From a virus (lineage: Duplodnaviria > Heunggongvirae > Uroviricota > Caudoviricetes), in the IMG/VR virus record IMGVR_UViG_2667527789_000019: a stretch of DNA of 14,879 bases; one strand, 5' to 3'. This document shows positions 1 to 6,000 of this stretch, in pieces (position 1 is the first letter of the stretch; every line of letters begins with the position of its first letter). The position numbers were made by a program.

Positions 1-3000
1 ATGCGTATAGGACAAAATCGTTTTTTGGGGGCTATACACATGTTGCTTTCAGACCTTGCTATCCGTCGCGCGAAGCCAAAAGAGAAAGCCTATACACTCA
101 ATGACGGCAACGGGCTTTCGTTACTCATTGAGCCGAACGGTTCGAAGGGCTGGCGATTGCGATACAGGTTTGCAGGCAAGCCCAAAATGTTGTCGCTGGG
201 TGTTTATCCTGAGGTGTCCCTTTCTGATGCTAGGACGGCAAGGGATGAAGCCAAAAGGCTTATCGCTGGTGGAGTTAATCCGAGTGAGGTCAGAAAGGCC
301 CAAAAGCGAGAACAGGCGAACAAATGCGGCAACACCTTTGAGGCGATCGCCCGTGAGTGGTATGAAAAACGCCTGGACCGATGGTCTCCCTCATATGCAG
401 AGGAAATGATAGAGACGTTTGAAAAAGACGTTTTTCCGTACATTGGAGGTAGGCCCATCGCAGAGATTAAGCCGATGGAATTGCTCGCGGTTCTATCCCG
501 TCTTAATGACCGTGGCGCAACTGAAAAATTGCGTAAGGTTCGCCAGCGATGTGGCGAAGTGTTCCGGTACGCAATAATTACCGGACGCGCTGAATATAAC
601 CCCGCTCCTGATCTGGCAAGCGCATTTGCACCACACAAAAAAGAGCATTACGCGTATCTGAAAGTTGATGAGCTACCGGAATTTTTCCGCGTTTTTAATA
701 CGTACACCGGAAGCCAGATCGTCAAGCTGGGTATGCGATTGTTGATTCTTACAGGACTTCGCCCAGGTGAATTACGGCAGGCAGAGTGGCAGGAGATTGA
801 TTTTGATAATCGTCTGTGGGAAGTGCCGAAAGAACGAATGAAAATGCGCCGTCCTCATTGCGTGCCACTTTCAGAACAGGCGATCGCTATTCTGGAACAG
901 TTAAAACACATGACGGGGCAGTATCCGTTTATTTTCCCTGGTCGAATACAGCACAGTAAGCCGATGAGTGAAATGGCTATGAACGTGCTTATTCGTCGTA
1001 TTGGCTATGCAGGGCGCGTTACTGGTCATGGGTTCCGGCATACCATGAGTACGATTTTGCATGAGCAGGGTTATAACTCCGCGTGGATAGAAACGCAGCT
1101 GGCGCACGTCGATAAAAACTCGATCCGTGGCACATACAATCACGCGCAATACCTGGACGGACGGCGGGAGATGCTCCAGTGGTACGCCGACTATATGGAC
1201 TCACTGGAACAGGGCGGTAACGTGGTGCACGGCAAGTTTGGTGTATGTGCATAAAAACGACTGGACAAGTATACAGATGTATACTAACGTACACGGAAAG
1301 CTACAGGTAATATCCTTACAGATGGTTTTTCACGCAGTTACCCCATCATGTATGGACGGCGCTCCTTGTAACAACGAAGATGGAGTCTTCTACGCAGCTG
1401 AAAAGCTGGATGCTCTTTAACAGCCTTTGGTGCTTTCCTGATGCAGGAAAGAATAGGGATACATGCACCTTTACAATGCATGTAATGATTCACCAATGAG
1501 GCTGCGGAGCGCTGACAAAGCGCAATTGCTCTCTTGCCTGCCCACCATGCCCTGAAAAAGGGCGCTCTTTAAAACTACTGGACGTCACGCCTAATCGTGT
1601 GACCCCGCCGAAAAGCGGGAATAGCTCTACCTTGCTGGAGCATACCAACCACCAACCAAACAATCTGAATTTATCTTATGCAATACCACAACATGTTTTC
1701 ATGTTGTGGTTTTTGTCGTGTTCGTAATTTGACGCAAATAAAACTCTTGCTAAGCCACAGGAGGGGATTTTCGCGTCAACATTAAGGAGATTGATAAATG
1801 GCTAATAACAATTCATTCATCCGTCTTTCTGAGGTTATGCGCCGTACTGGTTACGGTCGCGCATGGATTTATCGCCTGATCAGCCTGGGGCGTTTCCCTA
1901 AACCGGTAAAAATTGGTTCCCGCTCCGTGGCTTTTATTGAAAGTGAAGTCGACGAATGGATTAACCAGCGTATTGATGCTTCTCGCAACAACGCCGCGTA
2001 ATAATCTTTTGGGAGGGGGATATTCTCCCCCAGCACTAAACCTGATTCGATAGCAGGAGTTTTCAATGAAACGTCCGAATGTGCCCGTACAGGGGCAGGG
2101 CTTCGTTCAGCCTGAAATCAGCCAGAACGATATATTGATTCGCCACAAAGCAGAGTCGCGTATTGATTCCCGCCTGTTTGCTGAACGCATCGGCATAAAG
2201 CACAAAAGCCTTTATTCGCTTATTCAGAAGCACAAAACCGGATTGCGTGAACTGGGTATCCTTCCGTTTCAAACGGAGCGATTAAAAACCAATCAACACG
2301 GAGAGCGTGAACATAAGTTTGCTCTGCTGAATAGCGATCAGTTTGATTACATGCGCCATATCGTGAGCCATTTCGCCGCTGAGCGTATGAAACACGTTAA
2401 GCAATACTTAGAGGAGGTTTTATCAAATTATCGCGCTGGTGGCTCTGTACGGCGCGAATATTTGCATGATGCAGGAATGGCAGGCAAAACAAAGGCGACC
2501 ACGAAAGGGTCGCCAGTGGAGATAAAGGAAATCAAGCGCATCACCAACTATGCCATGAGTGTAGCTGGTGGACAAGGCTATCAGCCAGGCGGTCGGTTTT
2601 TAGTGGCTTTTAACCGCCGTGGGTATTTCTCGACAAAATCTTCAAGGGCAAATCGTTTTTGTGGGTGTTTTTTCACTCCGGGAAGAGGCGTTAACTCTTC
2701 GGGTTCTGATATCTCTTTAGCGCGTTTCAGTTCCAGTTGGCGCTCAAGTATGCGGTGCAAAAGCTGTCTTCGTTGTTCGGCAAAAATATCTGTAATGGAT
2801 TGGTACTTTTTGTTCATGCTGCTGCCCTGTAAAGCAATGCGCCGTAGTACCTCACACCACGGCGCTGATAGTGATTATTCTGATTCTTTGGCCTTGCGGC
2901 GCTGGCGGCGTTTGATCTCGCCTCGCATGGCTGTAACGATAAATTGCGCAGTGCTCTCGCCTGTTTCTTTTACTTGCTCCATAGCCTCAACAACTTCATG

Positions 3001-6000
3001 CGGGGCGCGAGCCTGTAATTTCTGTGATTTGTTATTGATATGGTCTCTTTCCATTTCTGCTTCCCTTTGTGATTACTGGAATCCAGTATACACGAAAAAG
3101 ACCAAAACAAAACGCTTGAAGTGGATTCCACTTAGTGATTATACTGGAATCCAGTTGAGTGTTTATCACTCAATGCAAACGAGGCTGAAAAGGATTGCCG
3201 TCCTTTCGCAGCCTCTGACCACCAACGATAGCAAGAGTATCGAGGCAGCTATGAGAAATCATATCACACACCCGCAAGGGCGGGACTCGCACAACCTGAA
3301 TAAATTCACCTGGCGCTTTATGCAGTGCCTGACAGACAGCATTGCAATATTCACCGTTACCGCTGCCACTGAGCACGAAGCACGCGCCCAGCTGCCGCAC
3401 GCACATCTTATTTTTGTCGCCCGTATCCGTCAGGAGGTGACTCATGCTTAAAACCTTCCGCGTCTTTTCCCGTGCTGTTAACAAGCGTGGCTATACCGTT
3501 GGCATCACGCAGAACGTGAAGGCCGAAAACGTCCAGGCTGCAATCAGCACAGTAATTAACAAATCAGCTAAAGCCGGTTTATCCGGCGTAATTATCCACG
3601 CCGTTCATGAAATTAAGGGGGTGCAGTAATGCAGGAAATGACACTGGCAGAAGCCTCACTGAAAGCGCAACAGATCGAAGTAATCAGCCGCATGATTGAA
3701 CGCATGATTGAACGCAACCACGAAGAAATAGACGACCATGACCTTTCTGTTATTGCGGGACTTATCAAACAACTTTCCAGCAATGTGGCGGTGTGGTTAA
3801 TGACGGAGGAAGAAAAACGCGGCGAACAATAACGGCTAAAAATAAACGGGAAATAAATATCAAGACGACTCCTTCAGGAGGCTAATTACATGAAATCGAA
3901 AATATCTGGCTTAACTGCCAGTAGCAAAACTCACCCCGAATTTATGTGCGGGGATATTTATCGCGATAAGTACGGCGGCATCGTGACGATTATCAGCACG
4001 AGAGAACGACGCATCACCTACCGCCGTGAAGGGTATGACTATGACTGCGTGATGCCCCTGTATCAGTTCAGTCGTGATTTTTCCCTGATGCAGGCCGTGC
4101 CACGTGGTAAGCCAGCAATACAAAAGCAGAGGCGAACATCCGAAAGATGAAAAACATGATTAACGTATTCAGGAGCAAAAAATGAAAAAAGCACCGAATT
4201 TAAAGCTCCAGCCGAAAGACAAAATGACCGAAGTCATTATCTTTGCAGGTAGTGATGCATGGGCACATGCGAAAGAGTGGAGCGAATGGGCCGGAAAGCA
4301 TATTGCAGCAGATGATACACCGCCCGTTATTCTTGGACCGAAACAACTGGCGAGCCTGGAAGACACAAAAATCATCGACAAAGGGCGCAATTACGTGCGC
4401 GTTTATCGTGCTGGTGAAATATCAGAGACAGCACTTTTACAGATAGCAACACTGCTTGCGGTGGCGGGTGTAAAGGAGGCACGTTGCTACAGCGGCTTTG
4501 TTGACCAGCAGCCGGAGGACTGGACACCGCGCATGGCTGGACTGAAGGATGATGCGGAACGCGGCAACAGCCTGGTGATCAATCTTCCGGCAAAGACAAA
4601 TTTCACCGGAAATTATGATGACGAATTAAAACCCCGCGTTGAATGCCGTCCTGATGGCGTTTATTGGGTTACGCCAAAGGTTGATAAGCAATCAGGCGAA
4701 ATTATACGGCCTGAAACGTGGTTATGTGCTTCGGTTGAATTACTGGGCGCTGGTGTCATTGGTAACGAGCATTACCGCGTGATGCGCTGGACAGATTCGA
4801 CAACAAATCGGCTTGTCACTATGGCCGTGCCTTGCTGCGGAATAGGCGACAGTGACGGCTGGCGGTTACTGAAAGCCAACGGGCTTAAAGTCACGACAAA
4901 CGGAAAACACAGGATCCCCCTGGCTGACTGGATGCAGTTAGGCGGACAGCATGAGGAATGGCACTTAAGCACGAAAGCTGGCTGGCACTTTGGCGCGTAC
5001 ATCATGCCGGACGGTACGGTTATCGGCGAATCTGACAAGCCCGTTTTGTTTACCGGAAAAAGTGCTGCCATTAACGGTTATTCCGTGGCGGGTACGGCGG
5101 ATAGCTGGCGCGACAGCGTGGCGCGGCTGGCTGGTGGTAATCCGTTCATGATGCTGGGCATAGCGACGTCATTATCCGCGCCATTAGTCGGGCTGGTCGG
5201 TGCTGATGGCTTTGGTGTGCATTTTTTCGAAAACTCCACAGCAGGTAAGACCACAACACAAAGCGTGGCATCGAGTTTATGGGGTGATCCTGAAGCGCAG
5301 CGATTAACCTGGTACGGAACAGCGTTAGGCATTGCTAACGAGGCTGAAGCACACAACCACGGGCTTTTACCACTGGATGAGATAGGACAGGCAGCAAGCG
5401 CCCGTGATGTGTACGTATCGGCTTATACGCTGTTTAACGGCTTCGGGAAATTACAGGGGGCAAAGGACGGCGGCAACAGAGAGCTGAAAAACTGGCGGGC
5501 CGTTGCTATCAGCACCGGAGAGGTGGACATTGAAACATTCCTCAAAACCGAGGGGATAAAGGTAAAAGTAGGGCAGCTTGTCCGCCTGCTTAATGTACCG
5601 ATGGAGAAAGCCACGAAATTTCACGAATACAGCAACGGTAAGGAACATGCGGACGCGTTAAAAGAAGCCTGGAAGGAAAACCACGGGGCGGCGGGTCGTG
5701 AGTGGGTTAAATGGCTGTCAGGCCACCAGCAGGAGGCAAAGGATACGGTAAGGGAATGCCGCGAACGGTGGCGCAACCTGATACCGGAGAGCTACGGCGA
5801 GCAGGTCCACCGCGTGGGTGAACGTTTCGCCATACTGGAGGCCGCGCTTGTGCTTTCCGGTCATGTAACTGGCTGGGCCGTGCAGGAATGCCGCGACGCG
5901 ATACTGCACAACTTTAATGCCTGGGTGAAGGTGTTCGGTACGGGGAACAAGGAGCACAAGCAGATTATTGAACAGGCTGAGGCGTTTCTTGCGGCCTATG

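Follow-up and report, generated by a model that had tools for sequence, protein, structure and literature searches.

A candidate ribbon-helix-helix repressor with three covarying proposed operator sites, and a predicted SymR-like antisense RNA, at the primase operon of an Escherichia coli int-alpA-primase island

In Gram-positive phage-inducible chromosomal islands (PICIs), derepression of the repressor Stl by helper-phage proteins has been shown experimentally. The model for Gram-negative islands is activation by AlpA; a global repressor was described as 'unclear' there, and the differing induction strategies of Gram-positive and Gram-negative islands were called 'a mystery' (PMC6092414). The present study concerns a stretch of 14,879 nucleotides (hereafter the window, meaning this whole stretch), filed as IMG/VR virus record IMGVR_UViG_2667527789_000019, which proved to be an E. 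coli chromosomal island beside a tRNA-Gly gene and is identical in NZ_CP045712.1. The tRNA-Gly gene, int, alpA and a DUF927 primase gene occur in canonical order, a layout which, by its gene order, is that of the int-alpA-primase type of Gram-negative PICIs. A gene upstream of the primase operon and divergent from it encodes a ribbon-helix-helix (RHH) protein of 59 amino acids. We consider it likely that this protein is an autoregulated repressor of the Icd-like/primase operon, whose family appears to have diversified into immunity-like specificities. Systems of this kind are well known; the present member is new and uncharacterised. The features needed for the argument are given below, with their strand in brackets.

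2875..3054 (-): RHH protein gene (YlcI/YnfO family), the proposed repressor, recognised from NF041551, phrog_949, homologues and codon diversity
3074..3087 (unstranded): O1, proposed operator nearest to the RHH gene, TACTGGAATCCAGT, with core CTGGAATCCAG at 3076-3086
3085..3090 (-): candidate -10 element (TATACT) of P_L, the leftward promoter; nearly every relative keeps the motif GTATACTG, and upstream there are a T-rich tract and a poor -35
3116..3145 (+): P_R, candidate promoter of the Icd-like/primase operon, with -35 TTGAAG at 3116-3121, an 18-bp spacer and -10 TATACT at 3140-3145
3120..3132 (unstranded): O2, proposed central operator, AGTGGATTCCACT, a degenerate palindrome with core GTGGATTCCAC at 3121-3131
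3142..3155 (unstranded): O3, proposed operator furthest from the RHH gene, TACTGGAATCCAGT, with core at 3144-3154
3162..3252 (-): predicted structured antisense RNA, SymR-like, probably running from ~3252 to ~3175 (~78 nt)
3251..3451 (+): Icd-like protein, first gene of the operon (NF033153, E 4.6e-12)
3258..3266 (-): extended -10 candidate (TGATATGAT) for the antisense RNA, seen in the sequence only, inside codons 3-6 of the Icd-like gene

A previous sequence-only reading had proposed a 59-aa RHH open reading frame (ORF) on the reverse strand, pointing away from the replication operon, with two palindromic operators in the intergenic region. The ORF was confirmed at 2875-3054 (-), with an ATG start and 108 homologues of 60-100% identity across Enterobacterales. 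It had been described as missing from the ORF track, but RefSeq/PGAP already lists it as WP_000439004.1, 'YlcI/YnfO family protein', an annotation which gives no function. Translation from the ATG yields MERDHINNKSQKLQARAPHEVVEAMEQVKETGESTAQFIVTAMRGEIKRRQRRKAKESE, with the Shine-Dalgarno sequence AAGGGAAG upstream. Nucleotide diversity by codon position was 2.77/1.62/9.29 in the conserved block (80 distinct DNA versions), third positions being three to six times as diverse as positions 1 and 2 in the RHH gene. The 59-codon ORF is a real gene. Its product matched NCBIfam NF041551 well above the curated cut-off (72.3 bits against 30, E 2.4e-20) and was assigned to PHROG 949, 'unknown function'. 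Likewise, literature searches found no published function for any YlcI/YnfO/DUF3950 member. The island subfamily is a small one: 94 clusters at 50% identity were counted among 1.84 billion representatives, and the tail GEIKRRQR, which does not vary, is distinctive of it.

At the structural level, the predicted parts of the protein are a beta-strand at residues ~9-17, two helices (A at 19-28 and B at 35-58) and a basic tail. This succession of strand, helix and helix over ~45 residues is that of the RHH (MetJ/Arc/CopG) superfamily. An AlphaFold2 monomer model based on 33 family members reached a mean pLDDT of 86 and displayed an extended N-terminus followed by helices at 19-28 and 35-58. The best structural matches were the RHH antitoxins Rv0298, CopA_SO, HicB and TacA. 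The fold predicted for the 59-aa protein is shown by these comparisons to be an RHH fold. An hhalign comparison with Arc had a probability of 15%, which is not significant and was used for residue register only; in this register, K12, Q14 and R16 stand opposite the base-contacting Q9, N11 and R13 of Arc. The hhalign comparison with CopG was not significant either. The C-terminal half (QFIVT..GEIKRRQR) is nearly invariant in all operator classes (see below) and ends in the invariant basic tail GEIKRRQR.

Since the best structural matches are RHH antitoxins, and a weak Pfam match to an Rv0623-like family was also recorded, the protein might be the antitoxin of a type II pair, the toxin being the 78-aa product of a small ORF in the same orientation 57 nt downstream; the palindromes would then be autoregulatory only. 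Yet this ORF matched neither a toxin nor any other family, and relatives either lack it or have another in its place; of the three sites, two belong to the divergent promoter and not to that of the RHH gene, and the C-terminus is an invariant basic tail instead of a variable toxin-binding segment. With no conserved cognate toxin gene and a swapped downstream slot, the toxin-antitoxin reading was rejected and we regard it as very improbable.

The two exact palindromic repeats of the sequence-only reading are indeed present in the intergenic region, at 3074-3087 and 3142-3155, and each of these copies of TACTGGAATCCAGT holds the 13-bp palindrome ACTGGA-A-TCCAGT. The number of sites is three and not two, the degenerate AGTGGATTCCACT (3120-3132) having been missed. 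When up to three mismatches were allowed, 12 strand-matches were found in the window for 3.4 expected, a count reached by none of 200 shuffles; six of the 12 are the three intergenic sites counted on both strands.

The comparison was then extended to genomes, viral contigs and metagenomes, which yielded 172 related loci; of these loci, 148 had a callable ORF and enough upstream sequence. Sites were sought without bias, by taking the 11-mer that best repeats three times in front of each RHH gene. Nearly all loci displayed three sites, starting ~104, ~81 and ~36 bp before the ATG, with an O2-O1 spacing of 45 bp and an O3-O2 spacing of either 22-25 or 33-37 bp. Conservation of the small ORF in related islands, on which the sequence-only reading had staked its proposal, was therefore observed: the ORF and the three-site layout occurred in ~150 loci. 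Short ORFs and short palindromes are common, and both might have come together by coincidence in an AT-rich intergenic region; this carries practically no weight, a chance origin being refuted by the shuffle count, the codon diversity and a three-site layout kept in ~150 loci of many genera. The two O3-O2 spacing sizes differ by about one helical turn (L010, L012, L013, L083 and L141-L173 versus the others).

All sites share the core [G/C]TG-N5-CA[C/G]. The central 5 bp vary and define ~13 classes, which match residues 11-16 of the protein together with its N-terminal arm. The classes are given below as protein segment and central 5-mer.

QK(L/V/I)QAR with xRDH arm: GATTC (class of the window)
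QKMSAR: GCACC (operators of this class: CTGGCACCCAG)
QQLNAR: AATCG
KKLEAR: TCAGC
QALKAR: TGGCC
QSVTAR: TCTTA
TQIASR: CTAAC
TQLASR: (C/G)TTAG
QKISVR: ACGGA
QQ(I/K)TAR: ACTTG
RQKTAR: ACTCC
KKMQAR: TGCTC
QK(L/V)Q(A/T)R with ATGTKN arm: GACTC

In classes QSVTAR and QQ(I/K)TAR, O3 was inverted relative to the other two sites; site orientation therefore appears not to matter.

A clear relationship was observed between the sites and the protein. Distances between sites followed distances in the RHH N-terminal half (Mantel r=0.81, p<=5e-4, a statistic inflated, like the others of this comparison, by shared ancestry), and the partial correlation stayed at 0.80-0.85 when controlled for the leader/Icd region, the downstream gene, AlpA, the primase or the integrase. 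The divergent leader/first-ORF region was compared here by DNA-segment distances. The reverse partials, given RHH, were close to zero for the leader (-0.02), AlpA (-0.04), the primase (0.02) and the integrase (-0.02). For the downstream gene, 0.10 was left (permutation p=0.0015), which we read as linkage because this gene is so often swapped. At the residue level, the central 5-mer of the operator fully fixed positions 12, 14 and 17 within this sample and nearly fixed residue 5; the most informative position was 14 (2.51 bits), and R16 was invariant. The covariation of residues 12 and 14 and the invariance of R16 lend indirect support to a major-groove reading by paired beta-strands. Comparison across loci shows that the specificities predicted for protein and operator covary as cognate pairs. 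The pairing of repressor and operator put forward by the sequence-only reading is borne out to this extent, the site changing with the DNA-reading segment of the protein over ~13 classes and being uncoupled from the neighbouring genes tested.

These partial correlations also bear on the idea that some other factor of the island binds the three repeats, as AlpA sites, primase iterons or origin repeats, the small RHH protein having a different task. PICI origins and many plasmid origins are built of short repeats, and AlpA is the sole experimentally established regulator of related islands. However, operator sequence was uncorrelated with AlpA, primase and integrase once RHH was accounted for, in contrast to the values for RHH itself, and the sites lie exactly on the -35, -10 and +1 positions of two divergent promoters, which is operator geometry and not origin geometry. 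AlpA sites and primase iterons were rejected on the partial Mantel tests, and we hold another factor to be improbable.

Outside the operators, the bases conserved in every class are those of promoter elements, namely TTGAnn with TATA(C/G)T in the case of P_R and GTATACT in that of P_L (3090-3085 in the window). These elements were conserved in all classes even though the operators differ. O2 accordingly takes up the spacer of P_R, where it abuts the -35; O3 extends over ~-8 to +3 of P_R. O1 overlaps the end of the -10 and the predicted start site of P_L, likewise from ~-8 to +3. The repeats thus sit on promoter elements conserved across all relatives, in agreement with their proposed role as operators, and they do so on core elements of both divergent promoters, a switch-like layout kept in ~150 loci. 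The RHH gene does point away from the rightward operon, whose direction (Icd-like gene, DUF4222, DUF927 primase) was confirmed. From this geometry we infer a repressor that would close the Icd-like/primase operon via two sites and limit its own synthesis via one.

Two features have no explanation in the repressor model, the T-rich tract and the fixed 45-bp spacing between O2 and O1. They bear on another possibility, in which the protein binds the sites but activates or architecturally organises P_L and P_R, or chiefly switches antisense read-through and its own synthesis. The strictly conserved spacing and the T-tract suggest looping or bending, O2 is centred ~48 bp upstream of the predicted start of a P_L without -35, and the antisense terminator is weak in the window, so that read-through could feed the RHH gene. 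On the other side, sites in a promoter spacer and over -10/+1 occupy classical repressing positions, and P_R has no site at an activator-type position. We consider such a role unlikely, although it is the alternative to which we give most weight.

The leader between O3 and the Icd-like gene would provide an additional control layer, just beyond the segment considered by the sequence-only reading, in the form of the antisense RNA. From 5' to 3', this predicted RNA comprises a small hairpin with the anti-Shine-Dalgarno CCUC, the motif (U)GGUGGUYAGA, a terminator hairpin (3215-3181) and a weak U-run; its sequence complements both the AUG and the ribosome-binding site of the Icd-like gene. The window copy folded with -31.1 kcal/mol (z=-3.1). 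An alignment of 44 loci folded into a pair of small helices plus a long hairpin with a T-run behind it; compensatory changes were seen at 15 of the 22 predicted pairs, 96.3% of cells were paired, and none of 500 shuffles of the alignment reached any of five measures. The strand was indicated by G.U pairs, of which there were 134 on the strand of the RHH gene (96.3% pairing) against 8 on the mRNA strand (83.2% pairing). The predicted structure and its strand are shown by comparison. A covariance model gave a single match, at the same place and on the same strand, in 100 of 100 sources, many of them close relatives or used in building the model; the window copy scored 67 bits.

Rfam SymR (RF01809) gave no match in the window, and for the antisense RNA no Rfam family was above threshold. 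In two relatives, sub-threshold matches to it were found beyond the distal operator on the RHH strand (44.9 bits, E 3e-5, in L087 and 30.5 bits in L002, for a gathering threshold of 61). No C4, IsrK or P4 CI-type/c4-a1b1 RNA was detected, either in the whole window at E<=1 or over 3100-3500 at E<=10. As a cis-antisense to a ribosome-binding site and AUG, and as a structured RNA of the ~77-nt class ending in a terminator, the candidate has the features of the SymR type. The Icd-like ORF most likely starts at ATG 3251, behind a GAGG Shine-Dalgarno, and would then encode 66 aa; RefSeq places the start at 3320 (43 aa), and the N-terminus MRNHITHPQGR read from 3251 is shared with relatives.

Some loci displayed further RNA elements. 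A second copy of the antisense RNA was found ~370 nt downstream of the RHH gene (L015 3547-3637, L018 and L021 3547-3638, L084 3529-3619, L095 1220-1310 (+)), which suggests module duplication or recombination. In locus L084, a true C4 RNA (72 bits) and its a1b1 targets were also found in a more distal part of the rightward operon (2358-2445 and 2513-2562 (-)); this locus thus combines RHH, SymR-like and C4-type controls.

The following mechanism can be proposed. A dimer or higher oligomer of the RHH protein would recognise O1-O3, three sites of 11-13 bp in the 196-bp region that separates its gene from the rightward operon, the specificity being read by beta-strand residues 12 and 14, the invariant R16 and the N-terminal arm. 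Since O2 fills the spacer and O3 covers -10/+1, occupancy of both should exclude RNA polymerase from P_R and leave the replication operon silent, while occupancy of O1 should give negative autoregulation of P_L. The family would form ~13 protein/operator pairs comparable to the immunity types of temperate phages. The antisense RNA (~78 nt), transcribed towards the operators, would prevent translation of the potentially toxic Icd-like gene by pairing with its AUG and ribosome-binding site.

Induction is more speculative. The alpA gene runs in the same direction as the replication operon and converges on the repressor gene, and AlpA-driven read-through or antitermination across the latter might silence it and bypass P_R. 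AlpA was described as an antiterminator in Pseudomonas (PMC7969949). Alternatively, a helper-phage anti-repressor might act on the invariant C-terminal half. The layering of the switch on AlpA-type control, which was part of the sequence-only reading, is putative and is suggested by gene order and published work on related islands.

Several observations weigh against this repressor scheme. The first concerns AlpA, an activator whose overexpression alone induces related islands (PMC6092414, Fillol-Salom et al. 2018); any repressor must thus be overridden by AlpA. At the protein level, Pfam searches with the protein and 33 members gave sub-threshold matches within the RHH clan only (PSK_trans_fac, 16 bits against 28.3), a profile search of PDB sequences returned chance matches only and a Foldseek search of the RHH protein gave no match. 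Some family members also matched CB_ParB_C and HicB in Pfam, below threshold. At the promoter level, P_L has no recognisable -35, and a better-scoring leftward promoter-like site (TAAACA-16-TATAAT, 3165-3138) is not conserved. As to specificity, the strand alone does not set it, QKLQAR and QKVQAR occurring with GATTC, GACTC or GCATC depending on the N-arm, and locus L005 (QKIQAR) is an exception with a GAGTA core. The covariation statistics owe part of their height to shared ancestry, and the 5' end of the RHH gene is the physically nearest stretch to the sites, although the leader begins only ~20 bp from O3. Finally, EcCICFT073, sought by its coordinates in CFT073, led to a lambdoid prophage and core genes, and the module is unconfirmed there.

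The surroundings of this module in the window are organised as follows.

1-1254 (+): integrase
1798-2001 (+): AlpA
from 2066 (+): Rha-like open frame, unannotated
2581-2817 and 2875-3054 (-): small leftward ORFs, the second being the RHH gene
2581..2817 (-): 78-aa ORF 3' of the RHH gene, variable cargo with no assigned function
rightward operon (+): Icd-like gene, two small ORFs, DUF4222, DUF927 primase (4182-6320)

The primase operon is followed by genes for SSB, ProQ/FinO-like, PerC-like and Q-like proteins and then by a second integrase. No packaging gene was found among the PGAP annotations in the window part of L001, the distal ORFs not having been searched. A hairpin at 2839-2865 (-) separates the RHH gene from the 78-aa ORF. 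The slot after the RHH gene contained at least four unrelated-looking small ORFs within single operator classes, and most loci outside E. coli lacked the 78-aa ORF; both genes flanking the RHH/operator unit were visibly shuffled across operator classes. Several ORFs of this slot (position 2581-2817, L014-L156) have a C-terminal motif like ERFAPCAFALEKFL, the window version being KRFALEDFVEKY.

Among loci with enough flanking sequence, the same arrangement was recorded with Int in 99 of 117, AlpA in 77 of 117 and primase in 91 of 112. Within E. coli, blastn found the module in 489 of 5,426 complete genomes (~9%), every time in the chromosome. In O157:H7, an island between cspD and clpS carries the module together with genes for the terminase small subunit (TerS) and the major capsid protein; by this gene content, it is of the capsid-forming PICI (cf-PICI) type.

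A few other features of the window and its relatives are reported for completeness. A stop-free frame of 461 codons (2066-3451 (+)) starts from the Rha-like N-terminus (Phage_pRha 26 bits, below cut-off; phrog_2657) and passes both leftward genes in antisense; having crossed the whole operator region, it enters the Icd-like frame. Segment 2002-2580 has no RefSeq annotation, and the frame may be a gene remnant or a coincidence. The DUF4222 gene before the primase was flagged as frameshifted by RefSeq; the ORF at 3890-4150 (+) stops 32 nt before the primase start. The far end encodes a second site-specific integrase of 532 aa (12630-14228 (+), 14271-14879 (+)), which may mark a separate element inserted in tandem. 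The Rfam int-alpA RNA (RF02996) was above threshold in L002 (6860-6929) and L006 (6519-6587 (-)), and absent from the window even at E<=1. A nadA-riboswitch-like hairpin at 10704-10735 (-) scored 26 bits against 37.5 (E 0.027) with most of the model deleted and is probably due to chance.

A candidate repressor with defined operators bears on a gap acknowledged in what is known of Gram-negative PICIs. The cf-PICI preprint makes no mention of a repressor, and our literature searches found no paper on such a repressor or on a link between RHH proteins and PICIs. The ~13 natural protein/operator pairs would make a ready set of small orthogonal repressors and a natural experiment on DNA reading by RHH proteins, while the antisense RNA would extend SymR-type control to mobile elements. 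Were the protein not to bind O1-O3, no more would be left than an ordinary short ORF next to repeats. More tentatively, and with rather more doubt than confidence, the RHH family might be the unrecognised master repressor of Gram-negative PICIs and of cf-PICIs, including the O157:H7 EcCIEDL933 type, with ~13 heteroimmune specificities, a SymR-like RNA and induction by AlpA read-through; both groups of islands would then share a repressor logic.

Among known systems, Stl is a large helix-turn-helix repressor that is not known to be homologous to the 59-aa RHH protein. The likeness lies in the layout: in Staphylococcus aureus pathogenicity islands (SaPIs) and other Gram-positive PICIs, the gene of Stl (Rpr) also stands between int and the replication module, divergent from the excision/replication operon and with operators in the intergenic region (PMC6092414). 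At the family level, the window protein shares an RHH-like reading with YlcI of K-12 (NF041551; DUF3950), after which the family is named and whose sequence reads RNIRFPNQMIEQINIALEQKGSGNFSAWVIEACRRRL. However, K-12 ylcI lies beside cos/nohD in DLP12, where neither a three-site array nor a replication operon was seen by eye, no repeat search having been made there. This gene (L177 8252-8446 (-)) is divergent from nohD with a lambda-type cos in between, and a packaging/cos role may be possible. Compared with Arc/Mnt of P22 immI, the window differs in that sequence similarity is not significant (hhalign 15%), in its sites of 11-13 bp, three in number and set apart by 23 and 45 bp, and in the presumed target, a replication operon instead of an antirepressor gene.

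Dual control by a small protein and an RNA is also found in plasmids, where CopG and RNA II of pMV158, or CopB and CopA of R1, combine a small promoter repressor with an antisense RNA acting on translation of the leader or first cistron. There, the repressor is co-transcribed with rep, whereas the window gene is divergent, apparently autoregulated and part of an integrated island with an Icd-like first cistron. The latter recalls immI of P1/P7 (c4 RNA-icd-ant) and CI of P4, where an antisense RNA masks the ribosome-binding site of an Icd-like first cistron, placed first in an operon of a P4-like/int-alpA-primase element. In contrast to these, the window has no C4, IsrK or c4-a1b1 match, its candidate RNA is cis-encoded on the opposite strand and a putative protein repressor is present, which P4 is not known to have. 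RNA immunity of the P4/P1 type was rejected for the window, given the missing C4, IsrK and a1b1 matches.

The antisense RNA is best compared with symE/SymR. Judged by eye, the order of elements in the leader is presumably the same as in symE/SymR (a hairpin with CCAACAC-type loop, UAAYCACAA and a Shine-Dalgarno hairpin). The window gave no Rfam SymR match and the relatives stayed below the gathering score, the target is Icd-like and not SymE, and the protein is an RHH protein and not LexA. In the known system, LexA, SymR and Lon act additively, and SymR (~77 nt), transcribed from a promoter within the target ORF, spans the AUG as well as the ribosome-binding site (PMC1891008). The symE/SymR/LexA arrangement and the one proposed here are thus alike in joining a protein at the promoter with a cis-antisense RNA acting on translation, the promoter of the RNA lying in the target ORF (PMC1891008, Kawano 2007).

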